24,000 bases of DNA from Amycolatopsis sp. NBC_00345 (GTDB lineage: Bacteria; Actinomycetota; Actinomycetes; Mycobacteriales; Pseudonocardiaceae), in NCBI RefSeq assembly GCF_036116635.1, contig NZ_CP107995.1, positions 2,163,229 through 2,187,228 on the forward strand, read 5' to 3'. Shown here piece by piece: positions 1,128 through 24,000 of this stretch. Position 1 is the first letter of the stretch. Every line of letters starts with the position of its first letter. A program made the position numbers and the translations under genes. Under the pieces are notes generated by a model. It did no database searches and was not told where the DNA came from. It worked only from the letters and a program-made list of their open reading frames with translations.

Positions 1128-1131
1128 GCTC

Positions 1132-2427: not shown

Positions 2428-2430
2428 GGG

Positions 2431-8531: not shown

Positions 8532-8542
8532 AGGCTGGGGCA

Positions 8543-9769
8543 TCAGTGCGCCTGCGGAGCCGAGCCGGTCGACGGCGGGGCCGCGCAAGGCGCCGACGTC
8601 GCCGGGGGAGCACCCGTCAGCCCGCCGAGCAGGGTGCCCAGGAGCGTGCCCAGCGTGTCGGTGACCCCGCACAGCGCGTTCGGCTGCGGGCCGGGCACCG
8701 GGGGCGCCGGCGGGACGGCCGGAGTCGGGGAAGGCGGGGCCGGTGGCGTGGGCGTGGGACTCGGACCGGGTGATGGCGGCTGGGGTTCCGGGCCTGGCTG
8801 AGTCTGAGCGGACGGCGGGGACGGCACCGGGGCAGGCCCGGCGGCCGGGGCGGCGGACGGCACCTTCTCCACTTGGGCGGCCATGGCGTATTCGTTGTCC
8901 GGCAAGGCTGTCATGCCGGTGCTGTAGGTGTTCATCCAAGCCCGCACCAGGTTGAGGTAGGTGGCGGAGTGGTTGTAGCTGAGGATGGCGGCGGTGAGCC
9001 CGTCGGCCGTGGCGAGGTCGCGGCCGGCGCAGAGGTACCTGGCACTGGCCAGGCTGGCGTCGTACACGTTGTGGGGACTGCTGATCGCGTCGCCGTTGCC
9101 GTCGGACGCCCAGCGGGCCCAGGTCCCCGGGATGAACTGCATGGGCCCCACCGCCCGGTCCCACACCGCGTCACCGTCCCACCGGCCGCCGTCGGTGTCG
9201 GGGACCGCCGCGAACGCGCCGCCGTCGAGGACCGGGCCGAGGATCGGCTGGAGCGTGGTGCCCGCCGCGTCGACCTGGCCGCCACGGGCGTGCCCGGACT
9301 CCACTTTGCCGATCGCGGCCAGCAAAGCCACCGGCAGGTGGCAGGCCGGTTGAAGGGCGTCCGAACGCAGCTGCGCCGATCGGTAGGCGTCGAGCACGGT
9401 CGACGGGATCCCGTTGGTGAGCGTGATCCGGACCCTCGGCCCGTCATCCGGAAGCGGCGGGATCGGCTGATCGCCGGAGAACGTGGGCAGGTCGCCGGAC
9501 GGCAGTGGCGCGGTCGGCGGGACGTTGCCGTCGGCCCCCTGTGGATAAGGCGCCGGCCCACCGGCGGGCGGGGCGAGCGGTGTAGCCCGACCGGCCGGCC
9601 CGGCCGCGCCGGGTGCCGCGCCCGTGGCCAGTCCGATGAGGAGCGCGGCGGACAGCCCGAGAACGCCCGCCGACGAGGGGCGCCGGATACGGCCCGCGGG
9701 GGCGGCGGTCCGGCCCGCGCTCCGGCGGCCGCGCCGAACCTGATCCTGGTTACCAGACGACTTGGTCAA
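8543..9769 (-). CDS. Secreted lytic transglycosylase-like protein with a Pro-rich C-terminal tail
   Basis: N-terminal Arg-rich segment then hydrophobic signal-like segment: ...RIRRPSSAGVLGLSAALLIGLATGAAPGAAG. SLT/MltB-like core: LLAAIGKVESGHARGG...GPMQFIPGTWARWASDGNGDAISSPHNVYDASLASARYLCAGRDL...ILSYNHSATYLNLV. The C-terminus is a PxP-rich linker. Start codon is TTG at 9769, preceded by gagagga. Confidence 0.75.
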   Translation of the reverse strand: MTKSSGNQDQVRRGRRSAGRTAAPAGRIRRPSSAGVLGLSAALLIGLATGAAPGAAGPAGRATPLAPPAGGPAPYPQGADGNVPPTAPLPSGDLPTFSGDQPIPPLPDDGPRVRITLTNGIPSTVLDAYRSAQLRSDALQPACHLPVALLAAIGKVESGHARGGQVDAAGTTLQPILGPVLDGGAFAAVPDTDGGRWDGDAVWDRAVGPMQFIPGTWARWASDGNGDAISSPHNVYDASLASARYLCAGRDLATADGLTAAILSYNHSATYLNLVRAWMNTYSTGMTALPDNEYAMAAQVEKVPSAAPAAGPAPVPSPPSAQTQPGPEPQPPSPGPSPTPTPPAPPSPTPAVPPAPPVPGPQPNALCGVTDTLGTLLGTLLGGLTGAPPATSAPCAAPPSTGSAPQAH

Positions 9770-9925
9770 ACCGGCTCATCCTCTCAGCTCGTATCCATGG
9801 CGAGAACGGGCGACCGCCGGGAATTCAGTAGAGCACCGGCCGGGGCCGGATCACGGGCCGCGCGCGGTGAATTGTCTGTGCGGGAAACCGATACCGCCTG
9901 GCCGGGTTGCCCGCGGAGACGCCGC

Positions 9926-10546
9926 TCAGATCAATCCTTCTTGCAGAGCGAAGGCGACGGCGTGGGTCCGATTGCGAAGGTGGAAGCGGCTGACCACGTC
10001 GTGCAGCGTGTTCTTGATGGTGCGCTCCGAATAACAAAGCTCTTCGGCGATCTCCTTGATCTCGTTTCCCTGGGCGATTAACCGCAGCACGGTCGCCTCC
10101 CGTTCGGAGATGCCCGAGAAGTGCAGGCCGCGGGGCGCCAGTACCTGGTTCTGCAGCCGGGAAACCTGTTCGAGCAGCCGGCCGAGCAGCTTGGGGGACA
10201 GGACGCCCTCCATCGCGGCGGCGTGTGTGATCGCGGTGGTGAGCCGCTCCGGGGTCGCTTCGGCTCGCGACACCACACCGCAGACGCCGGCTTCCACCGC
10301 GGCCAGCAGCGCCGCGTCGTCGGGAGCGGAAAGCACCGTGATGATCCGTGGTGCGCCTTCGCCGCGCAGCGCGCGGATCAAGTCGATGGCCGGTGGGTTG
10401 ATCACGTCGACGACCGCGACGACGACGTCCGGCCCGTCGCTCATCGCCGGCACCATGGTCAGCTCCGGTCTGGACCGCAGCTGCGTGATCACCCCCGTCT
10501 CGGAGATCGGATCCAACCCGCGTACGTGGACCGGGATTCGCTGCAT
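9926..10546 (-). CDS. Atypical NarL/LuxR-family response regulator (206 aa)
   Basis: ATG at 10546 (MQRIPVHVRGLDPISETGV...) is preceded by GGAGG at a 7-nt spacing. A receiver-like N-terminal half is followed by C-terminal LuxR HTH ISEREATVLRLIAQGNEIKEIAEELCYSERTIKNTLHDVVSRFHL. The 613-aa track ORF (9926..11767) is a high-GC extension that runs antisense through the next gene. Confidence 0.85.
   Translation of the reverse strand: MQRIPVHVRGLDPISETGVITQLRSRPELTMVPAMSDGPDVVVAVVDVINPPAIDLIRALRGEGAPRIITVLSAPDDAALLAAVEAGVCGVVSRAEATPERLTTAITHAAAMEGVLSPKLLGRLLEQVSRLQNQVLAPRGLHFSGISEREATVLRLIAQGNEIKEIAEELCYSERTIKNTLHDVVSRFHLRNRTHAVAFALQEGLI
10079..10081 (-). other. In-frame TTA (Leu) codon in the atypical response regulator
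   Basis: The minus-strand codons read gtg ctg cgg TTA atc gcc cag, encoding V-L-R-L-I-A-Q. Confidence 0.9.
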
Positions 10547-10607
10547 GGTCTGGCCTCCTGCGCTGTCAAGGGCCGTGGTGAAGTCCGTCGAGGCCAGTCT
10601 TCGGTGG

Positions 10608-10629
10608 CCGCTCAACACCCGCTCAACAT
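10608..10629. promoter_or_regulatory. Two tandem 11-bp direct repeats (ccgctcaacaC / ccgctcaacaT); candidate activator (SARP- or RR-type) binding site
   Basis: 10608-10618 and 10619-10629 are identical at 10 of 11 positions and exactly abutting, giving one-helical-turn periodicity. They lie in the 234-bp divergent region, about 62 nt from the RR start codon and about 151 nt from the Trp-rich gene start. The repeat is certain. Its function is inferred. Confidence 0.35.
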
Positions 10630-10780
10630 GACCGGCCGGGAAGAGATCGCCGGGCCGGCGGGCGCCGCCGTGGCTGCCTCCGAGGGCAACGGCGAGTGTC
10701 CGTGGTGCCACCTCGGTGGTCCTCGCGCACCGCGACGCCGCGTCGTTACCGTCAACCGAAACAGCAGAAAGGTTCGACAG

Positions 10781-11782
10781 ATGGACGATATGGCGGTTAC
10801 GGCCATTCTGGCGGTTCCGGCTGATCTGCTCGGGACGGACACCGAAAAGTTCTTGGATGTGATCATCGACGCTTATCCGGGTGGTGAGGGCCCGAATTCG
10901 CTGGACGACTTCGTCACCCTGGTGGGCGAGCGGGAGCCGTCGTTCGCCGGTGCCGCCGAAGAATTCAGGGAGAACTTGCGGGCGGAGGGCGTCGACGGCC
11001 ACTGGGCCGAGATCGCCCGAACCTTCGTGAATGATGCCGGATCCGGCGCGCGGCTGTCGGATCTGCACGAGCAGTTCAGTGAAGAGCCGGAAGCCGACGA
11101 CGAACCGGCGGACGATGATGTCGCGGCCGAGACCGTCGAAGAGCCCGGTGACTGGGCGGCTTTCTGCGCCGAGAACCGGGAGTTCTGGCTGGGCTGGGAC
11201 GGGACGGATTGGGACGGGTGGCGGGCGGCGTTCGCCGAGGGCGCGGCCCAGGGCCGGGTTGACGGGGATCTGGCGGCGCACCTGGTCTGGATGGACAGCC
11301 TGGAGGCGGCGGGCCGGATGGCCTATCTGCGCGACACGCTCGGGTTCGCGATCAACGAGGACGCGCTGGCCGCCGTTTCGGCCGCTGCCGCTTCCGGTGA
11401 CTGGAATGCCTTCTGCGCCGAGAACCGGGACTTCTGGCAGGGGTGGGACGGCGCGGATTGGGCCGGGTGGCGGGCGGCGTTCGCGGAGGGGGCTGTGGGT
11501 GCCGGGGTCGGTGCGGATCTGGACCCGCATCTGTCCTGGATGGACAGTCTCGACGCGGCGGGCCGGATGGCCTACCTGCGCGACACGCTCGGATTCGCGA
11601 TCAACGAGGACGCATTCGCCGAAGCGAGCGGCACAGCTTCGGGGGAAGAGCCCAGCGAGGAAACGCAGATCCCGGCCGACCTCGCCGGTGAGATCGCCGC
11701 GCAGGTCCCCGGATTCGAGCAACTGTCCGATGAGGAGATCGCCGCGGTCGTGGCCGAGGCCCTGCAAGAAGCGGAGGAGTGA
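10781..11782 (+). CDS. Acidic hypothetical protein A: novel N-terminal domain, Asp/Glu linker and two ~83-aa Trp-rich modules
   Basis: ATG at 10781 is preceded by gaaagg. Sequence: MDDMAVTAILAVPADLLGTDTEKFLDVIIDAYPGGEGP... then EEPEADDEPADDDVAAETVEEP, then two copies of W.AFCAENR.FW.GWDG.DW.GWRAAFAEGA...DL..HL.WMDSL.AAGRMAYLRDTLGFAINEDA. The upstream part of track ORF 10121..11782 is Arg/Gly-rich junk. I recognise no family. Confidence 0.8.
   Translation: MDDMAVTAILAVPADLLGTDTEKFLDVIIDAYPGGEGPNSLDDFVTLVGEREPSFAGAAEEFRENLRAEGVDGHWAEIARTFVNDAGSGARLSDLHEQFSEEPEADDEPADDDVAAETVEEPGDWAAFCAENREFWLGWDGTDWDGWRAAFAEGAAQGRVDGDLAAHLVWMDSLEAAGRMAYLRDTLGFAINEDALAAVSAAAASGDWNAFCAENRDFWQGWDGADWAGWRAAFAEGAVGAGVGADLDPHLSWMDSLDAAGRMAYLRDTLGFAINEDAFAEASGTASGEEPSEETQIPADLAGEIAAQVPGFEQLSDEEIAAVVAEALQEAEE
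11147..11644 (+). repeat. Intragenic tandem duplication, 2 x 249 nt (83-aa Trp-rich module)
   Basis: ggtgactgggcggctttctgcgccgagaaccgggagttctgg starts at 11147. ggtgactggaatgccttctgcgccgagaaccgggacttctgg starts at 11396. The period is 249 nt and in frame. Confidence 0.9.
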
Positions 11783-11787
11783 GCGAA

Positions 11788-12318
11788 ATGACTGCCCCAG
11801 CGGGTGGCGCCGGCGTCGAAAACCACGGTGTCATCACACGTAACCTCAGGGCCTTCCTGCGCGCGAACCGGGATGTGCTGCGCCGGCTCGGGCAGTGCCT
11901 GGCCGTCGAAGAAGGCGACGCGGAGCCGGCGCCGGTTCGGGTGCACGTGGACATGGAAGGAATCGGCACGGTGGACGACGACGTGACCACGCTGTACACC
12001 GACGGGTTCGGGGGATGCATCGGCGTGGTCCTCCTCGGTCCCGGGAACACCCGCACCCTGGCCCACATCTATTCCGGCCACATTCCGGCCGCCCGGGCCG
12101 CTTCGGCGCCGGAGTGGGGAAGGGTCGGCCAGTTCCGGCAGCTCGCGGCGGCGGCCGACGTCTACCACGTCTACCAGCAGCCCTCTTACTGGGCGCCGGG
12201 AGACGGGGGATCCTGCGACGAATTCCTGGCGTATTTCCGCCTGGACCCGACACGGACCGCCTTTCACGGCGCGCCGGCCGTCGTCGAGGTCGGGCCCACG
12301 GGCGAGGTAACGCCGTAG
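11788..12318 (+). CDS. Small hypothetical protein with a CheD/CNF1/BLF1-like xGC...H (Cys-His) motif; possible deamidase/cysteine-hydrolase fold
   Basis: ATG at 11788 lies 8 nt after GGAGGAG (11773-11779). An alternative GTG at 11779 overlaps the upstream stop. Motif: VRVHVDMEGIGTVDDDVTTLYTDGFGGCIGVVLLGPGNTRTLAHIYSGH. The Cys codon is at 12016-12018 and the His codon at 12064-12066, 16 residues apart. In CheD the motif is ...TLGLGSCVAV...AHVMLP with a 17-residue spacing. This is a by-eye similarity only. Confidence 0.7.
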   Translation: MTAPAGGAGVENHGVITRNLRAFLRANRDVLRRLGQCLAVEEGDAEPAPVRVHVDMEGIGTVDDDVTTLYTDGFGGCIGVVLLGPGNTRTLAHIYSGHIPAARAASAPEWGRVGQFRQLAAAADVYHVYQQPSYWAPGDGGSCDEFLAYFRLDPTRTAFHGAPAVVEVGPTGEVTP

Positions 12319-12382: not shown

Positions 12383-13441
12383 ATGGACGACACAGCCGTT
12401 GCGGCCATTCTGGCGGTTCCCGTCGACTTGCTCGGCGCGGACAGCGAGAAATTCTTCGACCTGGTCATCGACGCCTACCCGGGCGGGGAGGGTCCGGAGC
12501 TGGACGAGTTCTTGACTCAGGTGCGTGAGCGGGAACCGTCGTTCAGCACTGCCGTCGAGACCTTCGAGGAGAACTTGAAGGCCGAGGGCCTCGATCGGTA
12601 CTGGCCCGATATCACGCGCGCCTTCGTGAACGAGGCAGGCACGGGGGCGCGGCTGGACCAGCTCCGGGAACAGCTTGAGGAAGAGGCGGAGTTCGAGGAA
12701 GAACCGGCGGACGAGGCCGACGCCCCGGTCGCCGATTCCGGCGGCTGGGAGGCGTTCTGCGCCGAGAACCGGGCGTTCTGGCTGGGCTGGGATGGCGCGG
12801 ATTGGGCGGGGTGGCGGGCCGCGTTCGCGGAGGGGGCTGTGGGTGCCGGGGTGGGTGCGGACCTGGATCCGCATCTGTCCTGGATGGACGGACTCGACCT
12901 ACCGGGTCGGTTGGCGTATTTGCGTGACACGCTGGGGTTCTCCGTCAACGAGGAGGCACTGGCCGGCGCCGGTTCCGGTGGCTGGGAGGCGTTCTGCGCC
13001 GAGAACCGGGATTTCTGGCAGGGCTGGGACGGCGCGGATTGGGACACTTGGCGGGCAGCGTTTGCCGAGGGGGCTGCGGGTGCCGGGGTGGGTGCGGATC
13101 TGGATCCGCATCTGTCCTGGATGGACGGACTCGACCTGCCCGGCCGGTTGGCGTATTTGCGTGACACGCTCGGATTCTCCGTCAGCGAGGAGGCCTTCGC
13201 CGAAGCGAGCGGTGCGGCTCCGGCGGGCGACGTCGGCGCCCAGCCCTCCGAAGCGGAAGTCTCGGCGGCGATCGAAGCGGCCGAGCAGGCGATCCAGGGG
13301 CTTCCGCCGGAACAACAGGTCATCCCGCCGGAGATCGTCTCGGAGATGTTCAAGGAGTTTCCCGAGGCGGCGTTCATGGATCCGGCCGAGATCGCCACGG
13401 TCATCAGGGATGCCTCGTTGCAGATCGCGGCGTCAGCCTGA
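12383..13441 (+). CDS. Acidic hypothetical protein B, paralogue of 10781..11782 (two ~79-aa Trp-rich modules plus a distinct C-terminal tail)
   Basis: ATG at 12383 is preceded by ggaaagg. The leader and first codons resemble those of gene A (gaaaggt.cgac..agATGGACGA). Sequence: MDDTAVAAILAVPVDLLGADSEKFFDLVIDAYPGGEGP..., acidic linker EEEAEFEEEPADEADAP, then two copies of GGWEAFCAENR.FW.GWDGADW..WRAAFAEGA.GAGVGADLDPHLSWMDGLDLPGRLAYLRDTLGFSV. Confidence 0.8.
   Translation: MDDTAVAAILAVPVDLLGADSEKFFDLVIDAYPGGEGPELDEFLTQVREREPSFSTAVETFEENLKAEGLDRYWPDITRAFVNEAGTGARLDQLREQLEEEAEFEEEPADEADAPVADSGGWEAFCAENRAFWLGWDGADWAGWRAAFAEGAVGAGVGADLDPHLSWMDGLDLPGRLAYLRDTLGFSVNEEALAGAGSGGWEAFCAENRDFWQGWDGADWDTWRAAFAEGAAGAGVGADLDPHLSWMDGLDLPGRLAYLRDTLGFSVSEEAFAEASGAAPAGDVGAQPSEAEVSAAIEAAEQAIQGLPPEQQVIPPEIVSEMFKEFPEAAFMDPAEIATVIRDASLQIAASA
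12740..13213 (+). repeat. Intragenic tandem duplication, 2 x 237 nt (79-aa Trp-rich module)
   Basis: ggcggctgggaggcgttctgcgccgagaaccgggcgttctgg starts at 12740. ggtggctgggaggcgttctgcgccgagaaccgggatttctgg starts at 12977. The period is 237 nt and in frame. Confidence 0.9.
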
Positions 13442-13449
13442 CCGGCGGT

Positions 13450-14308
13450 TCAGCCGGAAGACCAGGAAACCTGGACGCGCCGGCGGAGCCACTCTTTGAG
13501 CTCGACCCGGAGGAACCAGGCGCCGAGCCACGAACTGCGGTCACGGAGGACGCCCCGGGTCGGCTCCGGCAGGTCCGCGACCACGGTCCGCGTTGGAGGC
13601 GGGCCCGGCCCTGGTCGTCGGCGCGCTTGAGTGGCTGGTGACCAACCCGGGGTACGGCCGGACCGTGGACCGCGCCGCCCGGGCGATCCGGTCGGCTCTC
13701 GGCGGGGCCCGCCGCGTTCGGGTCCGCCGGCGGGGCCGGGGCGCCCTTCCGGGTCGAGTATTCGCTGAGGATGGCCATGATCTTCGTCTGGACGGCCGGA
13801 TCCAGCTTTCCGGTTTCCTGCCAGAAGGCGTTCTGGTCCATCGCCCGGTCGAGCGCGTCGCCGTACCAGGGTAGCTGTGCAACAGGCCCATGGTCGATTC
13901 CGGCAGACGATCGAGGTAGGCCTCGGCCTCCGCGACGGCTTGCTGGTCCGGGGGATTCCCGGTGATCCGCCTTCCCACGTAGGCAAAGGGGGAGGCGCCG
14001 GGGTCGGGCGGGTCCGCGGAGGCGGGGCTTCGCTGGGGAGACTCGCCTCTGAGCTGAGCGGGGTGAGCACCAGTGCCTCGACGGGACCGTGCAAAGCCAC
14101 CATGGGCGACGTCGAAGTCGTACGCCGTGTTGAGGTGGAGTTCGGGCTTCGGTGCCGGCTGGCGGGCGCCGTCCAGGATCGCCGTCAGCGCGACGTCGTT
14201 GCGCAGGTTCACGGTGTGCTCGGTGTACATCCGCACGGTCTGGCCTCGCGGCACGAAAGTCGTTCCGCCGTCGGGATCCTCGCCATGGCCGGAGACGATG
14301 GTGGTCAC
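13450..14308 (-). pseudogene. Frame-disrupted gene directly downstream of the deaminase gene (candidate decayed immunity/partner gene, or local assembly indels)
   Basis: A GTG start at 14308 lies 19 nt after the deaminase stop. The first ~65 codons (MTTIVSGHGEDPDGGTTFVPRGQTVRMYTEHTVNLRNDVALTAILDG...) have high third-position GC. After that, the frame with coding-like GC3 and sensible residues switches four times. It moves near 14105 into the frame of track ORF 13450..14103, and returns near 14025. Near 13880 it moves into the frame of ORF 13404..14321 (QLPWYGDALDRAMDQNAFWQETGKLDPAVQTKIMAILSEYSTRKG). Near 13595 it moves into the frame ending at 13450 (VVADLPEPTRGVLRDRSSWLGAWFLRVELKEWLRRRVQVSWSSG*). 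Switch points are by-eye estimates. Confidence 0.45.
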
Positions 14309-14327: not shown

Positions 14328-15230
14328 TCAATGCCGTTTGTCCCAGGAGTAGTTCTTGAGCGCCGGCGGTGTGTCGGCGCCGGTGCTTTCGGTCTGCGGC
14401 GACAGGGTGGGGATGCACAGCTTGTAGGTGAGGTAACTACAGCTGTCGCAAGGGGGAATGGGGGGAAGCGCGACCGGCTTGGCCGGGGTGGCCACCTTGG
14501 GCGCGGTCAGGTTCGCGGCGGTCGCGGCGCCGAGGTGCTCGAAGTGGTTGCGGGCGTCGCTGAGACTCCAGCTGTTGTCGGGGTCCACCTCCCACAGGTA
14601 GTCCGAGATGACCCCGACTTCGGCGCACCGGCCGTGTCCGTTCCCCATCGGGTATTCGTTGTTGTTCTGGTCGCGGTTGGGCTTGTTGACGTTGTCTTCT
14701 TTTTCGCCGATATCGGAAAGTATGCTGCTGACCAGCGGATGGACGTGGGGGTCGCCCTGTTTCATGCTGGTGTGATCGGAGATGCGGGCTCCCGCGACCA
14801 GCGCGCCCGCCATCCCGGGCCTGGTGTTGTTGCTGCGGTCCTTGACCTGGTCGGCGAGCGCGTGGGAGGTGCTGTCGAGCGCGTGGTCCGCGAGGTGGTC
14901 GTCTTCCCAGGGGGTGGCCGAGAAGGCCTTGAGCGGGTGGGCGTCGCCCCGGGCCGGGTTCTTCTGGTGCTGGGTTCCTTCGCCGGTGAGGACGGGGGTG
15001 GCCGGATTGGCGGGCCGCGGCCGGTCGTATTTCCCCTTTTGCCCCACGGGGAGTGTTTCATTGTCCTTGACTGCGTCGTTCCACTGGACTTCCTTGTTCT
15101 TCTTCCGGCGCTTGGCCGGTCCTTGGTCGTCGGCCGGTTCATCGGGCACGGTCCGGTTCTTTTCGCGGTTCTCCGTGGCGGCCACCAGATACGCGGTGAG
15201 CTGCGCGGCGAAGTCGTGGGGCTGGCTCAT
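14328..15230 (-). CDS. Nucleic-acid deaminase-like toxin candidate (cytidine-deaminase-like superfamily, YwqJ-like/SCP1.201-like pattern) with a charged, disordered N-terminal region
   Basis: Zinc/catalytic motifs: GHGRCAEVGVISDYL (CAE at nt 14619-14627) and PPCDSC (PCDSC at nt 14439-14453), preceded by HPLVSSIL. The spacing from Glu to the PC motif is 55 aa, longer than the classic spacing. The N-terminal ~100 aa are Lys/Asp/Pro-rich (NREKNRTVPDEPADDQGPAKRRKKNKEVQWNDAVKDNETLPVGQKGKYDRPRPANP). There is no signal peptide. GGAG lies upstream of the ATG at 15230. Confidence 0.65.
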   Translation of the reverse strand: MSQPHDFAAQLTAYLVAATENREKNRTVPDEPADDQGPAKRRKKNKEVQWNDAVKDNETLPVGQKGKYDRPRPANPATPVLTGEGTQHQKNPARGDAHPLKAFSATPWEDDHLADHALDSTSHALADQVKDRSNNTRPGMAGALVAGARISDHTSMKQGDPHVHPLVSSILSDIGEKEDNVNKPNRDQNNNEYPMGNGHGRCAEVGVISDYLWEVDPDNSWSLSDARNHFEHLGAATAANLTAPKVATPAKPVALPPIPPCDSCSYLTYKLCIPTLSPQTESTGADTPPALKNYSWDKRH

Positions 15231-15275
15231 GGGACTCCGATCTCGAGGTGGCCGACAGGTCGTGGGGTTATTCGT

Positions 15276-18200
15276 TCAGTCCCCGGGCCACCAGCGCCGC
15301 AACGGCGAGTCTCCGGTTCGCCGGCGGTACGCGGTGGCGGCGACGGTGGCGACGCCGAGGAGAAGGAGGCCGCCGCCGATGACGATTCCCGCGGCCAGCG
15401 GCACGCCGGTGTAGGCCAGCTTTCCCGGGTTCGAGGTGCCGGGGCCGGTCCCGCCGGTCGCCTTCCCGACGGTGCCACCGGCGTTCACGGCAGCACTCGT
15501 ACTGCCGGTGCCTCCGCTGGTATTCGGCCCCAGACCACCGGACTGGCCGGTGCCCGGACTGGCGGCCTTGCTGTCCGGTGGAGCCTGCCCGGCAGTGACG
15601 GTGACCGTCGCCGAGTCGGTCCCGGTCAGCGGCTGGCCGATGTCGGCGCCGTTCACCCGGGGAGTGGCCGAATAGGACGAGGTGTTCGTGAGGTCGGTGC
15701 TGCTTTCGTCCGCGGGGGCGGCGGCGGTGCACGTGACGCCGTTGGCGGCGCCGACTTGCAGGCCGTCGCCGTTCAGCGTGAAGTCGCAGTCGTGAGCGCT
15801 GTCGTTGCGCACGTCGACGGTCAGCGGCACATCCCCGGTATTGCGGATGGTCACGGAGAACGTGACTTTCTGGCCGTGCTTCGCCTCCTGCGGATCGGCC
15901 GTGGTGCTGATGGCGAGGGCCGGGTTGATCACCGTCACCCGCAGCGGCGGCGAACCGACCCGCATCTCCCGGTTCGCCTGGTCGACGGCCGAGGCGGTGG
16001 CCTGGTTGTCGAAGCTCCGGTCGGGTTTGGCCGTGCACTCGGCCGTCGCGCTCTGCCCCGGGGCGAGCTGCGCGATCGGCTGCGGCCGGCAGTCGGGCAG
16101 GGTCGGGCTGGCCACCGCGATGTTGGTCACCGGGCCGTCCTGGGCGGTGCCGGTGTTCTGGACGGTGAACGTCACCTTGACCTGGTCGCCGTGCCGGACG
16201 AGGGGCTGGTCGACCTGCTGGCTCAAGGTGATCAGCGGCGCCAGCACGGTGATGGTGACGGGGGCCGCGGCCGCGTTCACCGCGTCGCCGTTCACATCCT
16301 CGGCCGTCACAGCGGCTTCCAGCGTGAGCGGCCCGATCTCCGTGGGCTGCGCGTCACAGCTGACTTCGGCCGACGCGCCGGGTCCGAGCACGGGAACCGG
16401 TGGCGCGCTGCAGATTTTCGGCGCTGACGCCACAAGGTTCGTGAGCGTCTCCTCGGGTTGGTCACCGTCGTTGTGCAGACCGAAGGTCAGCCGGACCGTG
16501 TCACCGGGATACAGGCTGGTCTTGTCCACCGAGGTGGTGATACTGACCGCCGGGTCGATCACGGTGGTCGTGATGGGCTGTCCGCGCACCGTCACCGTCC
16601 CTTGTGGAATGGTTCCGGTCATCGTGCCCGAACTGGTGAAGGTCTGCGCGGGAGCGGTGGCCGTACAGGAGAACTCCATCGGCGTTCCCGGGGACAGGGT
16701 GGCGGCCGGTGCTGCGCACTCCGGGGCCGCCGAGTCGGCGTAGCCCACGCCGGTCACGTCCGTGGTGGTGTTGTTGCCCAGCCGCACCGCGAAGTTCAGC
16801 TTGGCGCCCTCGCGGACCACGAGCCGGTCCGGCACCCGTTCGACGGTGTAGTCCGCGGGCGTCACCTGGACCGTCGCGCTCGCGGAGGCCTGCACGGTGT
16901 TCCGGCGGCCGGTCGTGCCGATCAGGTAGGTCCCGGTGACCGTGGCGTCGGTGGTGAACGCGGGCGCGGTGCGGGCGGGCTGGACGCAGCGCACGTCGGC
17001 GGATTCGCCGGGGCCGAGGGACGGCAGGGCGAGCGGCGTGCAGCGGATGCCCGGATCCGCGCTGGTGTCCTCGCGCGTCTTGAGGCCGACGTCCAGGTCG
17101 CTCAGCCGCAGCGCCCCGTCGTTGCGGATCCGCAGGTTGAACGTGGCGAGGTCGCCTTGGCCGATGGGCGTGGCCGGGCCGGTCATGGTCAGCGACACCG
17201 CGGGCGCGACGGTTTCGGCCAGCACGATGTTCTGCAGGACCACGAAGTCGTCGACGCTGTCGATCCCGATCTTGATGGACCCGTCGGTGTTGTCGGCCAG
17301 CGTGGGCTTGACCGTTTTGGCGTCCACGCTGAGATTGTTCGTGGTCCGCTTGACCGGGTCGAGCGGGTCGATCGCGCCGACGGCACACGAGCGGAAGAAG
17401 TCCACTGTGGTGTTTTCGCCGGAACACGGCTCGGCCATGGGGGTGCCGTCGACCGAGAAGGTCTCCTGGCCCAGGCCCCGGTCGCCGTCGTACCCGGTCA
17501 GGCCGACCGTGATGTCCGCGGTGGAGCGTTTCGGCGACACGCCGGGCAGCACGACACTGGTGCCGGTCAACGACGGCGTGAGGCCGGGCAGCAGGCCGGC
17601 CACCCCGTCCACCACCGGCCCGAGCGGCGCGGGCAGGCCGCCGGGCAGCAGCGGGTCGAGCAGCCCGGACAGAGCCGCGCTCTGTGGCATGTCCTGGGAG
17701 TAGAGGTCGATCACCCGGGGCACGAGGTAGGGCGCGTGCGGCTGGCCGTAGTCGAACACCACCACGATCGACCAGCCCCCCGCGCACCCCGGCCCGGACG
17801 GCGCCCACACGTTGCTCACCGAGAGCTTGACCGCGCCGCCGGTCGGCGCGCCGGCGAACGTGCCGGTGACGTCGGCCCAGTCGGTGTAGATCTGGCCGGC
17901 CTCGGCCAGCCCGTCCGTGGTGGTGAAGTGCGCCGGGTCGAGGACGGCCGCCTGCGGTTCGCCACCGGCGACCGCGATCCGGGGGCGCTGCTGGGCCGGG
18001 GCCGCCGCGGCCGGTTGGGGCGGCGCCTCGCCTTGCTGCATAAGGGGAGGGAGACAGTTGACGCCCGAGAACCCCGAGACCTTCCCGGTGTGCCCGCCCC
18101 AGTTCAGCTGCGCGTACCGCACCGTGGCGCCGCTCGGGACGGTGACTTCGGCGCTGCTGGAGTTGAACGAGTCGGTGCGGCCGTCGTCCCTCGCCTGGTG

Positions 18201-18527
18201 CAGGTAGTAGCCGTTGTTGTCGGCGCTGTTGTCCCGCGGGGCGGGCTGCGTGCTTTCGGTGGCGGCTTGGCAGGTGGCCGGCGGATTGTCGCCCGCGACC
18301 TCGTCGCCGGTCGGGCAGCGCAGCGAGCTGTTGCCGGCCATGACCACGTCCCCGTACACCGAGTCCCGGTAGGTCGGCTGCACGGTCGGGCTCATGGGGT
18401 CCGAGCCGTCCTGGGCCACGCGTTCGACGGCGCTCGGATCCCCGGGGTCGCCGGGCGCGCCGGGCGCGAACACCAGCGGGGCCGCGGCGAGGAGCAGGAG
18501 GACCACGACGAGCGAGTACCGGAACAT
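15276..18527 (-). CDS. LAxTG (sortase)-anchored cell-surface protein: signal peptide, ~420-aa N-terminal domain, five Ig-like DUF11/CARDB-type repeats, Gly/Ser/Thr stalk
   Basis: Signal peptide MFRYSLVVVLLLLAAAPLVFAPG. Repeats resemble ITLSQQVDQPLVRHGDQVKVTFTVQNTGTAQDGPVTNIAVASP.... C-terminal sorting signal: GKLAYTGVPLAAGIVIGGGLLLLGVATVAATAYRRRTG (LAYTG, hydrophobic span, basic tail). An agagggg RBS precedes the ATG at 18527, which is 18 nt after the DUF4255 gene stop. Confidence 0.85.
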   Translation of the reverse strand: MFRYSLVVVLLLLAAAPLVFAPGAPGDPGDPSAVERVAQDGSDPMSPTVQPTYRDSVYGDVVMAGNSSLRCPTGDEVAGDNPPATCQAATESTQPAPRDNSADNNGYYLHQARDDGRTDSFNSSSAEVTVPSGATVRYAQLNWGGHTGKVSGFSGVNCLPPLMQQGEAPPQPAAAAPAQQRPRIAVAGGEPQAAVLDPAHFTTTDGLAEAGQIYTDWADVTGTFAGAPTGGAVKLSVSNVWAPSGPGCAGGWSIVVVFDYGQPHAPYLVPRVIDLYSQDMPQSAALSGLLDPLLPGGLPAPLGPVVDGVAGLLPGLTPSLTGTSVVLPGVSPKRSTADITVGLTGYDGDRGLGQETFSVDGTPMAEPCSGENTTVDFFRSCAVGAIDPLDPVKRTTNNLSVDAKTVKPTLADNTDGSIKIGIDSVDDFVVLQNIVLAETVAPAVSLTMTGPATPIGQGDLATFNLRIRNDGALRLSDLDVGLKTREDTSADPGIRCTPLALPSLGPGESADVRCVQPARTAPAFTTDATVTGTYLIGTTGRRNTVQASASATVQVTPADYTVERVPDRLVVREGAKLNFAVRLGNNTTTDVTGVGYADSAAPECAAPAATLSPGTPMEFSCTATAPAQTFTSSGTMTGTIPQGTVTVRGQPITTTVIDPAVSITTSVDKTSLYPGDTVRLTFGLHNDGDQPEETLTNLVASAPKICSAPPVPVLGPGASAEVSCDAQPTEIGPLTLEAAVTAEDVNGDAVNAAAAPVTITVLAPLITLSQQVDQPLVRHGDQVKVTFTVQNTGTAQDGPVTNIAVASPTLPDCRPQPIAQLAPGQSATAECTAKPDRSFDNQATASAVDQANREMRVGSPPLRVTVINPALAISTTADPQEAKHGQKVTFSVTIRNTGDVPLTVDVRNDSAHDCDFTLNGDGLQVGAANGVTCTAAAPADESSTDLTNTSSYSATPRVNGADIGQPLTGTDSATVTVTAGQAPPDSKAASPGTGQSGGLGPNTSGGTGSTSAAVNAGGTVGKATGGTGPGTSNPGKLAYTGVPLAAGIVIGGGLLLLGVATVAATAYRRRTGDSPLRRWWPGD
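15405..15419 (-). other. LAYTG sortase recognition motif (LAxTG class, typical of actinomycete class E sortase substrates)
   Basis: The reverse complement of 15405-15419 is ctggcctacaccggc, encoding L-A-Y-T-G. A 23-aa hydrophobic segment and RRR follow. Confidence 0.8.
15594..17201 (-). repeat. Array of five ~105-aa Ig-like (DUF11-type) domains within the surface protein (aa ~443-978)
   Basis: Each unit has a ...G..v.f.v...N.G... strand pattern and exactly two Cys 17-19 residues apart: IRCTP..DVRCVQ, APECAA..EFSCTA, KICSAP..EVSCDA, LPDCRP..TAECTA, AHDCDF..GVTCTA. Confidence 0.7.
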
Positions 18528-18545: not shown

Positions 18546-19235
18546 TCAGCGCTCGGTGATGGAGGTCCGGCGCCACCGGGGCCGGGGCTCGGGCGGAAGC
18601 CCCCGCACGGTGTCGTGGACCTCGAGCTCGGCGGTCTTGACCGGAGGGGCGGGCGGGCGCAGCCGGGACGGCTGGACGGGGGCGGTGACCGTCAGGTCCA
18701 CTGCGGTGCGCATCGGCACGCCCAGGGCCGGCCACAGGTCGTGGCCGCGCCCGCCCGGGGTCCAGCCCAGCCGGACCGGGAGCGCCGTGTCGAGTTCGCG
18801 CAGGCAGCCTCGCAGGTGCTCGGCGCCGAGCGTGTCCTTTTCGGCGTGGGCGCCGATCACCGCGCCGAGCAGCTCGGCTTCCTCTTCGGTGTCCGCCGCC
18901 CACGCGGTGACCAGGTAGGTCAGGTGGTAGTTGCGGGCCGGGGCGACGGTGCCGGTGAGCCGGCCCTCGTCGTTGAGCACGCGCACCCGGGCCGCCGGGA
19001 TGCCGTCGAGGTCCTCGGTGATGCCGTAGAGGAAGACGTTCACGATCCCGGCCCGCTGCGGCCGCCGCGCCATGCCCGCGAGCACGTGGGGCGGGTCGAA
19101 CCCGATCACCGTGCCGGGCGACAGCTCGGCGGTCAGCCATTCGCGAAGGGAGGAAGCCAGGTCAGCCAGCACGTCCCGAGCTTCGCCCACGGCACGGGGC
19201 GCGGACAGCGTGGCCGCGGCCCGCCGCACGGCCAC
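18546..19235 (-). CDS. DUF4255 / Pvc16(Afp16)-like contractile-injection-system tail terminator (cap) protein
   Basis: The hallmark N-terminal-domain motif GIVNVFLYGITEDLDG is followed by ...YHLTYLVTAWA.DTEEEAELLG.... The GTG start at 19235 is uncertain, with an alternative GTG at 19190. The gene is divergent from the sheath gene. Confidence 0.7.
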   Translation of the reverse strand: MAVRRAAATLSAPRAVGEARDVLADLASSLREWLTAELSPGTVIGFDPPHVLAGMARRPQRAGIVNVFLYGITEDLDGIPAARVRVLNDEGRLTGTVAPARNYHLTYLVTAWAADTEEEAELLGAVIGAHAEKDTLGAEHLRGCLRELDTALPVRLGWTPGGRGHDLWPALGVPMRTAVDLTVTAPVQPSRLRPPAPPVKTAELEVHDTVRGLPPEPRPRWRRTSITER

Positions 19236-19365
19236 TCCGGATTGCCTCGAAGGGCAACCGGGGCTTGACCACGACTGTGCGCGTCAGCCCCGTGGCAACG
19301 GCGGCCGCGGCTGCCAGCCTGAAACGCAGCTGTTCATCTCGGAATCGCTCGGACTGGGAGACTCG
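19236..19365. promoter_or_regulatory. 130-bp divergent intergenic region between the cap-like gene and the sheath gene; presumed CIS promoters
   Basis: This is the only non-coding DNA between the two divergent gene strings. It contains a TTGACC hexamer (19264-19270 region) and a short TTGCC-N6-GGCAA inverted repeat (19242-19257). Neither is sufficient to call a promoter or operator. Confidence 0.35.
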
Positions 19366-20898
<1,533 letters not shown>

Positions 20899-20933: not shown

Positions 20934-21446
20934 ATGCCACGAACAGGACTTCGCTCCCAGACGGCCGATCTCGACACCACGAACACCCTGGTCAGCGCCG
21001 CGCGGTTCGTCATTCAGTTCGACGGGAACACCACCAGCAACGGGATCTCCTTCTCCGAGCTGTCGGGCATCACCTCCGAGGTCGAGGTGACGGAGTACAT
21101 GTCCAGCAACTCGCTGGGGGTGTCGCTGTCGAAGGTGTACGGCCGGACCAAGCCCGCGACCGTCACGCTCAAGCGCGGGGTGGACCAGGACCAGACGCTG
21201 TGGGGCTGGCACCAGCAGGTGCTCCGCGGCGACCCGACGGGCCGCAAGAGCTGTTCGCTGCTCCTGCTCGACTCGACCGGTGCGGTGAAGCAGACGTACC
21301 ATCTGCTCAACGCGTGGCCGTCCAAACTGGACGTCGGCAACTTCAAGGCCGGCGGCAGCGACGCGGCGGTCGCGACGGTCACGCTCGTCTGCGAGCAGAT
21401 CGACCTGGAGAACGGGTCCGGGCCCAGCGGACCGGGCGGTAATTGA
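20934..21446 (+). CDS. Tail tube protein (T4 gp19-like / eCIS Afp1/Cis1-like), 170 aa
   Basis: AAGGGA RBS 6 nt upstream of the ATG. Sequence: FVIQFDGNTTSNGISFSELSGITSEVEVTEYMSSN...KPATVTLKRGVDQDQTLWGWHQQVLRG...CSLLLLDSTGAVKQTYHLLNAWPSKLDVGNFKAGGSDAAVATVTLVCEQIDL. This matches the conserved phage-tail-region tube pattern. It carries a ~25-aa N-terminal extension. Confidence 0.88.
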   Translation: MPRTGLRSQTADLDTTNTLVSAARFVIQFDGNTTSNGISFSELSGITSEVEVTEYMSSNSLGVSLSKVYGRTKPATVTLKRGVDQDQTLWGWHQQVLRGDPTGRKSCSLLLLDSTGAVKQTYHLLNAWPSKLDVGNFKAGGSDAAVATVTLVCEQIDLENGSGPSGPGGN

Positions 21447-22047: not shown

Positions 22048-22074
22048 GTTCCCGGAGGGCTGAGGGAGGGTGCG

Positions 22075-24000
22075 ATGTTCGGCTGGTCGTGGCGCCGTAG
22101 CCGCCCGGGGGCCGCTGGTCCGTCCGGGGGCGTGGCTGATCAGTCTACTGTGGATGGTGGAGACGGCGGGGCCGTTGGGCGGGCCGGGGCCGGGGCCGGA
22201 CCCGAGCCCGGGTCCAGCTCCGGCTTCGGGTCTGAGTCCGGAGTGGACCGTGCTCGTTACCGTCCGGCCTGGCGGTCGATGACGCCCTTGCGGTCCACAC
22301 TGGCGGCTCAGGCCCCGTTGACCGCCGCCGGTGCGTCGATCGGCGTGCTGCACCGGCCGATGCTGCCTTCGGCGGATTCGGCGGCGGCAGGAATCACCGG
22401 CCCCGCGGGGCGGATCAGCGGAATTGTCACCGCGGTGCCCGTTCAGCACGATCTGGTCGACTTGCCGCTCCGCCAGCCGCCGGGGCAGCGGACACTCAAG
22501 GACCCGGTCTCCGGCCGGCCCGCGGCCCCCGTATCCGCGTCGGCCGGAAGCAATCCGGCCGCCGAAATGCCCGCGCCGCCGAATGCCTGGCTCGCCAATG
22601 GCCTCGGTCCCGAGATCTCTGTTGCCGACAGCGCGCCTCCCGCGCCTTCTCTGATCCTGGCGGAGTTGCCGGTGTGGCGGGCCGTTCCGCCCCGGCCGGA
22701 GTCGCCGCCGCTGACCGTCGCCGAAGTGACGGAACCCCAGGCGCCCGAGGTGCCCTGGCGGCCGTCCGATCTCGTCCACCTGGGATACCGGGAGAAGGAC
22801 CGTCAGCTCGCGGCCCGATACGCCGAGCTCAACCACGAGCCGCGTCCCGCCCCGGCGCGCGGACCCACACCGCTGCCGCCCCGCCCGCAGTCGCTCCCGG
22901 AACCGGCCGCCCGAATCGAGCCGGTGTACCGCGAGCCGGAGCTGCGCCCGACGGAGCCGCCCCCGCGGTCACGACGCGCTTCGCTTGTCGAGAGCAGACG
23001 ACTGGGCCTCGGCATCGCAAAGGCCCGCCCACAGCCCGACGGCGAGCCCGCCGATCCTCCGCCCACCACCGAATTCGCTGCCCCCGCCGACGTCGATGCG
23101 GCGGGTCCGGAATCAGCGGGCGAGCCGGACGGCCAGTCTGACGCTGCAGAGATCAGCGATCCGGACGTGGCCACGTCCGCTCTGGACGTACCAGCACAGC
23201 CGGCCGATCCCGTCCTCCCGGCGATGGACCCGCCAACGCTTCGGGCCCCAGCACTCGGCGACGAACCCTTAGGGCGCACCGTTCCGATGACACGGACACC
23301 TCTTTCGCCCTCGCCGGCGCACCGTGGCACACCCGGGAATACAACGGCGAAGGAGACCACATCGCCGCGTCCCTCCGACACCGAGCCGGGAGCGGCGTCC
23401 GCAGCGGGGGAGCACCGGGCGACCACCCGTAAGCCGCCGGCAGAGGACGCGCCCGGTGATCCCGTCCGCAGCTCCGCCGAACCTGTCCCCGCCGGCGACT
23501 CACCGGCGGGGCCAACTCACCCGACGGCGCGGTCCGCCGCCCTGTCCCGGCCGGAACTGGTCGGGCCGGAGCTGGTCGGGCCGGTGGGGCCCAGGTCCGC
23601 CGATCCCGCCCGTGCCCCCGTTCCCACTGCCGTAGCCCGGCCCACGCGAAGAGCCGACGATGCCGATGTTCTTCCGCTGGCCGGTATGCCGACCGGCCGG
23701 CAATCCTCGGCACCGGGTGCAGATCTGGTTTTCCCGGTAGCAGCGTCACCGCCTCCGGGGGGCGTGCCGGCTGGGGAGCGATCTTCCGCGCCGAGCGGAG
23801 AGCCGGGTTTGCCGGTAGCAGCGGCGCCGGCCTCGGGTGGCGCGCCAGTGGGGGAGCAATCGCCGGCACTGGACGGAGATCTGGGTTTGCCGGTAGCAGC
23901 GTCGCCGCGTTCGGCCGGTGTGCTGGCTGGAGAGCAATCCTCGGCGCCGAGCGGAGAGCTGGGTTTGCCTGTGGTGTCGTCGCCCCCGGCCGGTCAGCGA
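22075..24000 (+). CDS. Large Pro/Ala/Ser-rich low-complexity protein in the tape-measure position of the CIS operon; 3'-truncated by the window and absent from the supplied ORF track
   Basis: ATG at 22075 is preceded by gagggaggg (22062-22070). I translated all 642 codons to the window end and found no stop. Sequence: MFGWSWRRSRPGAAGPSGGVADQSTVDGG...PAWRSMTPLRSTLAAQAPL...LILAELPVWRAVPPRPESPPL...VHLGYREKDRQLAARYAELNHEPRP.... Third-position GC is high throughout. Confidence 0.7.
   Translation, partial: MFGWSWRRSRPGAAGPSGGVADQSTVDGGDGGAVGRAGAGAGPEPGSSSGFGSESGVDRARYRPAWRSMTPLRSTLAAQAPLTAAGASIGVLHRPMLPSADSAAAGITGPAGRISGIVTAVPVQHDLVDLPLRQPPGQRTLKDPVSGRPAAPVSASAGSNPAAEMPAPPNAWLANGLGPEISVADSAPPAPSLILAELPVWRAVPPRPESPPLTVAEVTEPQAPEVPWRPSDLVHLGYREKDRQLAARYAELNHEPRPAPARGPTPLPPRPQSLPEPAARIEPVYREPELRPTEPPPRSRRASLVESRRLGLGIAKARPQPDGEPADPPPTTEFAAPADVDAAGPESAGEPDGQSDAAEISDPDVATSALDVPAQPADPVLPAMDPPTLRAPALGDEPLGRTVPMTRTPLSPSPAHRGTPGNTTAKETTSPRPSDTEPGAASAAGEHRATTRKPPAEDAPGDPVRSSAEPVPAGDSPAGPTHPTARSAALSRPELVGPELVGPVGPRSADPARAPVPTAVARPTRRADDADVLPLAGMPTGRQSSAPGADLVFPVAASPPPGGVPAGERSSAPSGEPGLPVAAAPASGGAPVGEQSPALDGDLGLPVAASPRSAGVLAGEQSSAPSGELGLPVVSSPPAGQR
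23269..23271 (+). other. In-frame TTA (Leu) codon in the Pro-rich CIS ORF
   Basis: ggc gac gaa ccc TTA ggg cgc acc encodes G-D-E-P-L-G-R-T in the 22075 frame. Confidence 0.85.
23695..24000 (+). repeat. In-frame 78-nt (26-aa) tandem repeat, at least 3.9 copies, continuing off the window
   Basis: Units start at 23695, 23773, 23851 and 23929: GRQSSAPGADLVFPVAASPPPGGVPA / GERSSAPSGEPGLPVAAAPASGGAPV / GEQSPALDGDLGLPVAASPRSAGVLA / GEQSSAPSGELGLPVVSSPPAGQR... Confidence 0.85.

Follow-up and report, generated by a model that had tools for sequence, protein, structure and literature searches.

A YwqJ-clade deaminase gene in the variable arm of an Amycolatopsis contractile injection system cluster

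To our knowledge, the cargo of actinobacterial contractile injection systems (CIS) and the rules by which it is loaded are known in few cases, namely DUF4157 proteins, tape-measure-like proteins of the Sle1/Tme kind, and Sco4256-4258. In Streptomyces, CIS mediate cell death, a producer-directed outcome that is used as a model below. Here we describe a gene for a compact deaminase encoded beside a CIS in a stretch of 24,000 nucleotides from Amycolatopsis sp. NBC_00345 (contig NZ_CP107995.1, positions 2,163,229 to 2,187,228; the whole stretch is referred to as the window). A preliminary description, made from the sequence letters, had proposed that the protein is a toxin deaminase and a possible CIS cargo, and the present analysis followed up that proposal.

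The family prototype, YwqJ of Bacillus subtilis, is a cytidine deaminase of single-stranded DNA and is delivered by the type VII secretion system (T7SS) of the T7SSb type (PMC13648612). Published traits of its clade are a Gx[CH]xE motif in helix 2, a conserved His in an insert that separates strand 2 from helix 2, an insert between strand 3 and CxxC, and frequent truncation after helix 3 or strand 4 (Iyer et al. 2011, PMC3239186). Sle1 of Streptomyces lividans is a tape-measure-like coiled-coil CIS cargo paired with a small DUF4157 protein, Sle2, and the genes for both lie on an arm divergent from the sheath gene (PMC13277306). The same paper, from 2026, describes a Sle1-type CIS effector of Micromonospora eburnea, RS14790, whose C-terminal domain is cytidine-deaminase-like; this domain is toxic in E. 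coli, and the product of the downstream gene, RS14785, neutralises it (PMC13277306). The effectors proposed for Streptomyces coelicolor, Sco4256-4258, are membrane proteins (PMC10066040).

Identity and architecture of the deaminase

The product of the deaminase open reading frame (ORF; coordinates of all features are collected in Table 1) is 100% identical to the NCBI protein "YwqJ-related putative deaminase" of Amycolatopsis sp. NBC_00345. The GC content at third codon positions (GC3) is 0.85, in surrounding DNA of 70% GC, and since this value is typical of real genes in such DNA, we take the ORF to be a real coding frame. A Pfam scan matched PF14431 (YwqJ-deaminase) to residues 130-270, with an E value of 4e-13 and 50.2 bits against a cut-off of 25.9 bits, covering profile positions 7-135 of 138; this toxin clade was the sole Pfam family above the gathering cut-off. 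The ORF, the peptides HPLVSSIL, GHGRCAEVGVISDYL and PPCDSC, and the numbering of the CAE and PCxxC motifs were all found as the preliminary description had given them, and the Pfam match, far above the cut-off, bears out the YwqJ half of its "YwqJ-like/SCP1.201-like" assignment. The other half did not survive: no SCP1.201/DddA-type model in Pfam matched the protein, and membership in that group was rejected, the motif being CAEVG as against [HD]xEx[KQ], with no K or Q two residues past the Glu.

Seven residues (H164, H199, G200, C202, E204, C261, and C264) are invariant in an alignment of 15 subfamily members. The AlphaFold model has a mean predicted local distance difference test (pLDDT) score of 69, with values above 85 over much of the core, and orders the core as helix 1, strands 1 and 2, an insert, helix 2, strand 3, and helix 3. 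In the model CAE starts a helix at 203-215 and PCxxC a helix at 262-270. The insert lying after strand 2 and before helix 2, residues 155-200, contains the invariant H164. Between E204 and P260 there are 55 residues, in which the model has an additional helix at 223-233, strand 3 at 236-241, and a loop rich in proline at 242-259; helix 3 is followed by 30 residues with no predicted hairpin and with pLDDT below 50 at 279-288 and 290-300. All of the published traits of the YwqJ clade are thus present. The 55-residue spacing had been entered as a caveat in the preliminary description, but it is no obstacle and the caveat falls, because an insert before CxxC is a published trait of the clade (PMC3239186).

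A profile search of 1.84 billion representative proteins returned 108 relatives. Many of these match just the first ~110 profile positions, which correspond to the N-terminal domain of two longer proteins of 360-380 aa, P0003 and P0004. Because this ~110-aa N-domain is also found on proteins that end in ADP-ribosyltransferase, HNH nuclease, or RHS-plus-toxin modules, it is a polymorphic-toxin trafficking domain. The remaining relatives match from profile position ~101-113 onward (window residue ~31-43), and comprise short forms of 220-250 aa, T7SS-type forms, and proteins of 4800-6200 aa.

The region ahead of the core in the window protein is strongly charged. Residues 20-100 contain 16 K+R, 13 D+E, 10 P, and 7 N, with a grand average of hydropathy of -1.72, and are rich in P, K, N, R, and D. 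The pLDDT is below 50 at residues 27-67 and 69-76, residue 68 being just over the cut-off; residues 78-100, in contrast, are modelled as packed onto the core, with pLDDT of about 88 and a strand at 90-94. The earlier view of residues ~20-100 as charged and disordered holds for the composition and for the stretches of low pLDDT, but not, in the model, for residues 78-100. Conserved motifs ahead of the core are KEVQW (KxVxW), Y68, P71, TGxGTxH at 82-88, and HPLK at 98-101, and T82, H98, P99, and L100 are invariant or nearly so across the 15 subfamily members. The TG motif is a mere resemblance to the PT-TG pre-toxin domain, since no PT-TG match was found in Pfam at E ≤ 10 and that assignment was rejected. 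In the model, then, an N-terminal helix and a disordered charged spacer lead into a pre-domain packed against the core, and the core itself stops shortly after helix 3.

No recognisable secretion domain was found, as had been claimed. The deaminase has no signal-like hydrophobic segment (the maximum Kyte-Doolittle value in a 15-residue window is 0.79), and a profile built from 36 N-domains of the relatives' trafficking domain had no match when the window was searched in all six frames (best E 5.1, 2 bits). A trafficking-domain remnant, in the first 26 residues or in the DNA 5' of the ATG, was rejected by the same search; with no trace in any frame, the deaminase is a protein without a trafficking domain rather than one with a broken domain. 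NCBIfam gave nothing for the deaminase, for the Stv-domain protein encoded downstream of it, for the acidic protein encoded at 12383-13441, or for the helical proteins described below.

Comparison with the orthologue at L012, a locus of a second lineage, gave a ratio of nonsynonymous to synonymous substitution rates (dN/dS) of 0.35 overall, 0.31 in the domain, and 0.48 over residues 1-120; the values for two neighbouring genes, Pvc16 and DUF11, were 0.23 and 0.19. The deaminase gene is under purifying selection and is selectively maintained. In the C-terminal tail, residues 276-300 (14328-14405, minus strand; SPQTESTGADTPPALKNYSWDKRH), the window and L012 proteins are 100% identical, although synonymous divergence (dS) is 0.27. 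This tail is predicted to be disordered, and its WD.R end is common to T7SS-type relatives and missing from the short forms that have an acidic partner. We conclude that, at the level of sequence, the identity of the protein as a YwqJ-clade toxin deaminase is secure; by analogy with B. subtilis YwqJ, its substrate is most likely cytosine in single-stranded DNA.

The cap-gene string and its variable slot

The deaminase gene is the third of a string that starts with the DUF4255 cap gene, as had been described. The order is Pvc16_N, DUF11/CARDB, deaminase, and a GTG-started ORF at 14308, with gaps of 18, 45, and 19 nt, and it is also found in L012; for two further loci, L002 and L003, short contigs cover the flanking genes. 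Divergent from the string are the sheath gene, the tube gene, a gene for a protein of 130 aa, and an eCIS_core-related gene. This last gene lies past the tube genes, on the side of the cluster opposite the deaminase. Its product had no direct Pfam match, but is related to L016_492 (phmmer E 2.9e-14), itself a homologue of the eCIS_core proteins of L013, L017, and L018; sister clusters encode members of this family at the same position. The scanned region has four terminator-like sites, each of them on the plus strand, and there is a promoter-like site upstream of Pvc16; a -35/-10-like site was noted at 19400-19373 on the minus strand. The first-start ORFs of Pvc16 and the sheath gene overlap by 164 bp (19072-19235). 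Pvc16 homologues have 207-212 aa, covering 90% of the ORF, and sheath orthologues 502-545 aa; since the orthologues are shorter, the true starts of both genes probably lie further in, leaving a divergent promoter region.

The surroundings of Pvc16 homologues yielded another seven CIS loci in the Pseudonocardiaceae, eight in all with the window. A DUF11/CARDB gene for a protein of ~1050-1085 aa lies behind the cap gene, in the same orientation, in 8/8 of these loci, and directly behind it in 7/8; in L017, two genes of the same arm lie between. In the window copy, a signal peptide and an LAYTG sortase signal were read, followed by a transmembrane segment and a basic tail, which marks the protein as a sortase substrate. 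Such a conserved wall-anchored protein could serve the CIS as an anchor, a receptor, or a fibre-like component.

What follows DUF11 differs between clusters. In L012, whose Pvc16 is 96% identical to that of the window, the slot holds the deaminase and an intact gene for a 517-aa Stv-domain protein. In L013, L023, and L018 it holds an acidic protein of 344-347 aa, a helical protein of 534-658 aa, and small genes; in L014, a lytic-transglycosylase-like gene; and in L016, where the cluster ends, housekeeping genes. Given this variation, the deaminase and Stv pair is a lineage-specific insertion into a variable accessory arm of the Pseudonocardiaceae CIS cluster.

In the window the Stv copy is a pseudogene: compared with that of L012, it lacks about 416 bp and 133 bp, shows smaller gaps as well, and contains an inverted piece of 97 bp (13590-13686) that generates a spurious plus-strand ORF, 13593-13874; the GTG start and the ribosome-binding site are retained. 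The Stv protein was rejected as a sole immunity factor, since in the window its gene has decayed and that of the deaminase has not. Searches with the Stv protein, and with a 179-aa protein encoded further along the window, against the sequences of solved structures found nothing.

Possible delivery of the deaminase and competing explanations

Eight further loci that encode a deaminase, each with 17 kb of context or more, were obtained from species-representative genomes and metagenomes, plus several short contigs; the metagenome scan contributed just two short contigs. Five loci (L001, L005, L006, L010, and L011) encode T7SS-type forms of 360-380 aa. A WXG100_2 gene lies upstream in all five, accompanied in L001, L005, L010, and L011 by a YbaB/EspL-like gene; L006 has WXG100_2 alone. 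The combination of the two genes is the actinobacterial T7SS/ESX substrate arrangement, and neither a WXG100-type helper nor a YbaB/EspL-like gene was found in the window. No SUKH or Imm6 match, and no immunity gene of a known family, adjoins the window deaminase. At L005, L006, L010, and L011 no candidate immunity gene lies directly downstream of the T7SS-type deaminase, and what comes next there is a gene on the opposite strand, TetR-like by sequence, or a response regulator, or a gap. In four loci with short forms (L007, L009, L019, and L020), a gene for an acidic protein of 228-250 aa lies upstream, 17-30 nt away where the gap was measured (L007 and L009); the short forms of L021 and L022, found by way of the acidic partner, have the same arrangement. 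In L008, from a Pseudonocardiaceae metagenome-assembled genome, the deaminase domain (around 10001-10498) lies inside one open frame of more than 5400 codons, and similar giant proteins are P0012 (6232 aa) and P0032 (4809 aa).

A neighbour-joining tree of the domain puts the window protein and its orthologue on a long branch of their own, slightly nearer to the Amycolatopsis T7SS-type forms, and sets the short forms with an acidic partner apart as a separate clade. The T7SS-type relatives are about 40% identical to the window deaminase and have the C-terminal tail in common with it. These comparisons show that the closest relatives are Amycolatopsis polymorphic toxins and place the evolutionary origin of the deaminase close to T7SS-type toxins. 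The distribution of the deaminase is patchy and lineage-specific. Plasmid and phage collections gave no match to it, and hence there is no evidence for a mobile cassette. This compact subfamily of YwqJ type is hardly sampled in public data, and it may interest developers of base editors, as the family prototype was recently shown to edit single-stranded DNA.

The acidic partners belong to a family that we call AWR, for acidic W-rich repeat. The members examined have a pI of about 4.05-4.08 and no Pfam model. Copies encoded in CIS clusters have two tandem W-rich units of ~75 aa (WxAFxAE..WxG..W..F) and a conserved C-terminal motif, and single-unit copies of 228-250 aa are encoded directly upstream of the short-form deaminases of the six loci named above. 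A deaminase partner matched the acidic protein encoded after DUF11 in the CIS cluster of Actinophytocola algeriensis (L018) with a tblastn E value of 1e-18, and its two repeats in jackhmmer with E values of 1e-37 and 1e-43; this species holds both an AWR-deaminase locus (L007) and a CIS locus (L018), on different contigs. A hidden Markov model (HMM) of the W-rich unit matched the L013 protein at the position after DUF11 (E 8e-10). The match to the window protein encoded at 12383-13441 was weak (HMM E 0.015; hhalign E 1.4e-4). A profile of the window family, made from the two AWR paralogues of the window, their L012 orthologues, and P0172, aligned with the partner-family profile in hhalign with 90.7% probability and an E value of 1.3e-6 over the C-terminal 70 columns. 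The window AWR genes are thus probably homologous to the deaminase partners; they lie within about 1 kb and about 2.5 kb of the window deaminase.

AWR genes are always upstream of a variable gene: a short-form deaminase in six loci, a gene for a 179-aa protein with a Cys/His motif in the window, and otherwise a gene for a helical protein, which belongs to the 534-aa family in L013 and L023, is related to that family in L024 (where its start is seen), and has 658 aa in L018, at the same position. In the CIS clusters of three lineages (L013, L018, and L023), AWR occupies a fixed position after DUF11. The AWR protein could be an escort or adaptor, or else a neutraliser, that is, an immunity protein or antitoxin. 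In L022, a free-standing gene for an eCIS_core protein of 447 aa (DUF4157, HExxH; 14484-15827) lies 3 kb downstream of the AWR-deaminase pair, and there are no CIS structural genes within 10 kb.

Our preferred reading, to which we give a probability of roughly 45%, is that the deaminase acts as a CIS-linked toxin effector; it draws on the operon position, the variable slot, the selection on the gene, the AWR link, and published precedent. The deaminase would be co-expressed with the CIS, as suggested by the string behind the cap and DUF11 genes and by the lack of a terminator-like site on the minus strand, and would be held or escorted by the AWR proteins encoded alongside. On firing it would be released, the destination being either a target cell or, in the manner of CIS-mediated cell death of Streptomyces, the cytoplasm of the producer itself. 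Delivery by the adjacent injection machine is plausible, and the protein is a candidate for loading into the particle. The free-standing deaminase in a cap-gene operon and the AWR partner family are concrete candidates for a different CIS loading route, and the deaminase also offers a genotoxic mechanism by which CIS might mediate cell death or competition.

Several observations weigh against this reading. Homologues of the deaminase were not enriched near CIS loci, which the preliminary description had itself set down as a point that would count against cargo: sheath, tube, Pvc16, and DUF11 genes were found by tblastn in 0/9 other deaminase loci for which the context spanned 17 kb or more, and among the eight CIS loci the deaminase is present in the window and L012 alone, a single lineage. 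Cap gene and deaminase are separated by the gene for a Sec/sortase-exported wall protein, which is not a known particle component, and no AWR gene lies directly upstream of the window deaminase, the homology of the window AWR proteins to the partners being moderately supported. None of the markers of known CIS effectors was found: DUF4157/eCIS_core gave no match in the deaminase even at E ≤ 10, no small DUF4157 gene adjoins it, and there is no long coiled coil of the Sle1 type, just one helix of 23 residues (4-26) before the disordered spacer. From about residue 45, the N-terminus aligns with the pre-domain of relatives outside CIS loci, and only residues 1 to about 44 are lineage-specific; as T7SS-type, short, and giant relatives all carry the segment from about residue 45, it follows the core whatever the delivery context. 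The suggestion that the disordered N-terminus is a CIS packaging region is not borne out for this reason, and no other gene of the locus has this N-terminal region. The cargo proposal as a whole is partly supported: the cap-gene string, the variable slot, the purifying selection, the AWR family, and the published precedent speak for it, while the other deaminase loci, the missing effector markers, and the N-terminus, which is not CIS-specific, speak against it. The decayed Stv gene, next in the string, means that the accessory arm may be eroding in the window genome. Finally, a Foldseek search of the deaminase model against the PDB gave no significant match (the best deaminase was blasticidin S deaminase, TMt 0.52, E 2.4), and a profile of the subfamily found no relative among the sequences of solved structures in the PDB, so that clade membership rests on sequence.

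The rival with most to be said for it is that the gene is a 5'-truncated T7SS-type toxin stranded in a recombination-prone CIS flank, with no functional tie to the CIS, and is either a reservoir for recombination into a full-length toxin gene or in slow decay like its Stv neighbour. We regard this as less likely than the effector reading, though a live alternative. It accords with the nearest relatives being T7SS-type toxins with YbaB/WXG100 partners, with the T7SS-type pre-domain and C-terminal tail that the window protein retains without the trafficking domain, with the deletions and inversion in the adjoining Stv pseudogene, with a slot after DUF11 that differs between clusters (and beside which, in L016, the cluster gives way to housekeeping genes), and with the lack of a CIS near any of the nine other deaminase loci. 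Against it stand the gene's own ATG and GGAG and the truncated layout, start site, and flanking genes, all identical in L012, and a dN/dS of 0.35 with the catalytic residues intact argues for function. The missing trafficking domain is not itself a sign of decay, because the short forms are a whole clade without it and with a dedicated partner; nor is there a full-length T7SS toxin gene nearby with which to recombine. Were the gene merely a stranded T7SS toxin module, its interest would be limited to the movement of toxin cassettes between secretion contexts.

A bolder form of the effector reading makes AWR a previously undescribed escort of Pseudonocardiaceae CIS, acting as adaptor or as holding partner, with the short-form deaminases, the window gene included, as cargo recruited through it. 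We consider this unlikely; if true, recruitment by AWR would be a third loading route for actinobacterial CIS, with a DNA-deaminase payload, in place of DUF4157, a tape-measure-like coil, or a PVC-type signal (PVC, Photorhabdus virulence cassette).

Somewhat less likely than the stranded cassette is an intracellular toxin that is never exported. On this account the acidic AWR protein, encoded upstream in the manner of type II toxin-antitoxin pairs, is the antitoxin or immunity protein of a short-form deaminase, the pair serves regulated cell death or phage defence, and the AWR homologues of CIS clusters neutralise other toxic products. In six loci, all of them outside CIS clusters, the gene directly upstream of the deaminase does encode such a partner, strongly acidic (pI about 4.05-4.08) and cytoplasmic; the deaminase has no secretion signal of any kind; AWR also precedes an unrelated helical family (L013, L023, and L024), much like promiscuous immunity scaffolds; and STAND NTPase regulators are abundant in the window and beside L021. 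The window deaminase, however, sits in the cap-gene string with no AWR gene directly upstream, and the position of AWR after DUF11 is fixed in CIS clusters of three lineages. The T7SS-type relatives, moreover, have neither an AWR gene nor another adjacent immunity gene, so that self-protection in the subfamily may not depend on AWR.

That the protein is no toxin at all, being a housekeeping nucleotide or nucleoside deaminase or an inactive relic with motifs kept by chance, would suit the weak Foldseek matches and the lack of an adjacent immunity gene of a known family, but is highly improbable given the lone Pfam match to a toxin clade, the relatives fused to polymorphic-toxin trafficking domains or lying inside giant multi-domain proteins, the zinc and catalytic residues that are all invariant in the subfamily, and a patchy, lineage-specific distribution unlike that of a housekeeping enzyme.

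Other genes of the window are listed in Table 1. The left half (150-11767) is dense in large regulators. Two long first-start ORFs there, a LuxR ORF at 9926-11767 and an ORF at 10121-11782, were rejected as high-GC artefacts, the real plus-strand gene starting at 10781. The 179-aa protein is 90% identical in L012, and the first 4 nt of its gene overlap the stop of the AWR gene before it; the protein has a GFGGCIGVVLL...AHIYSGH motif and is possibly a Cys/His enzyme. Its single-sequence AlphaFold model (pLDDT 43) was too poor to use.

Table 1. Coordinates of the features discussed, in the window unless a locus is named
Feature	Coordinates	Strand	Remarks
Deaminase ORF, YwqJ clade, short-form architecture	14328..15230	-	300 aa + stop, ATG start
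Shine-Dalgarno sequence, GGAG	15235..15238	-	4 nt 5' of the deaminase ATG, from sequence reading
Residues 1-26, predicted N-terminal helix	15153..15230	-	Lineage-specific; AlphaFold helix 4-26, pLDDT about 50-60
Residues 27-76, charged Pro/Lys/Asp-rich spacer	15003..15152	-	Predicted disordered (pLDDT, composition)
Residues 78-101, conserved pre-domain, TGxGTxH ... HPLK	14928..14999	-	Packs on core (alignment, AlphaFold)
Residues 117-275, deaminase core	14406..14882	-	Pfam match 130-270, AlphaFold
C202-A203-E204, within GxCxE	14619..14627	-	Zinc ligand and catalytic Glu, start of helix 2
P260-C261-D-S-C264, PCxxC	14439..14453	-	Zinc ligands, start of helix 3
DUF11/CARDB repeat wall protein gene	15276..18527	-	1083 aa; Pfam/NCBIfam; signal peptide, LAYTG, transmembrane segment, basic tail
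Cap/terminator gene, Pvc16_N (DUF4255)	18546..19235	-	Pfam E 1.8e-19; true start probably about 20 codons later
CIS sheath gene	19072..20898	+	Pfam Phage_sheath_1, Phage_sheath_1C; first-start ORF, true start probably later
CIS tube gene (gp19-like)	20934..21446	+	Pfam E 3.8e-27
Partial gene related to eCIS_core (DUF4157)-family proteins	22048..24000	+	Canonical effector/adaptor slot
Stv-domain (PF21527) pseudogene	13450..14308	-	Decayed relative to intact 517-aa L012 orthologue; directly downstream of deaminase
AWR paralogue	12383..13441	+	352 aa, pI 4.05, tandem repeats; convergent with deaminase string
Second AWR paralogue	10781..11782	+	333 aa, pI 4.05; 60-62% identical to 12383-13441 (local alignments)
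AWR gene in CIS cluster	L013:13959-14993		
AWR gene in CIS cluster	L018:13861-14904		
AWR gene in CIS cluster	L023:10001-11038		
179-aa protein gene	11779..12318	+	Family unassigned by Pfam/NCBIfam/PDB; GGCIGV...H motif; directly after AWR gene
LuxR-type gene	150-1127	+	
AAA/STAND-LuxR gene	1132-2427	-	
AAA/STAND-LuxR gene	2431-5382	-	
AAA-BTAD SARP-like gene	5613-8531	+	
Lytic-transglycosylase-like gene	8543-9769	-	Homologues recur in sister CIS loci L013, L014
LuxR-type gene	9926 to about 10700	-	

Comparison with known systems

The window protein belongs to the same family (PF14431) as the LXG toxin YwqJ of B. subtilis and has the same [HC]xE and CxxC zinc site (PMC13648612, PMC3239186). 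The YwqJ core has published inserts and additional helices, to which the extra helix at 223-233 and the loop at 242-259 of the window protein compare, and each protein has a conserved pre-toxin segment with a TG motif before the core. Unlike YwqJ, the window protein has CxE in place of HxE, lacks an LXG/WXG trafficking domain, Lap/WXG helpers, and an immunity gene of the YwqK type (SUKH/Imm6), and has its gene in a CIS cluster, not in an operon of T7SS substrates.

Similarity to the Pseudonocardiaceae T7SS-type toxins (P0003 and P0004) extends at about 40% identity over the pre-domain, core, and tail, with all invariant residues in common. Those toxins, however, have about 70-110 extra N-terminal residues and YbaB and WXG100_2 genes upstream, of which there is no trace in the window. 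The short forms (L007, L009, and L019-L022) resemble the window protein in having no trafficking domain and in the succession of charged N-terminus, pre-domain (motifs K.V.F and TG..T.H..HPL), and core; they differ from it in belonging to another clade, in lacking the C-terminal tail, in lying outside CIS clusters, and in having the partner gene directly upstream.

Effectors of Photorhabdus PVCs, which bear a disordered N-terminal packaging signal, resemble the window protein in the absence of a classical signal, in a charged N-terminus (predicted to be disordered in the window protein) ahead of a toxin domain, and in a position at the edge of a CIS cluster. The window N-terminus differs in being largely homologous to the pre-domain of deaminases outside CIS loci and in occurring on one gene of the locus, and the gene is found on the divergent strand, after the cap gene, and not distally in the structural operon. 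RS14790 of M. eburnea is, like the window protein, actinobacterial, encoded in a CIS cluster, and deaminase-like, a likeness drawn at the level of the published description; its long coiled coil, small DUF4157 partner, and downstream immunity gene have no counterparts in the window protein and its surroundings. A deaminase payload is less of a novelty for this precedent than the preliminary description had held (PMC13277306). By the same token, since a deaminase module on an actinobacterial CIS effector is no longer unprecedented, the idea that the window deaminase is cargo becomes more plausible.

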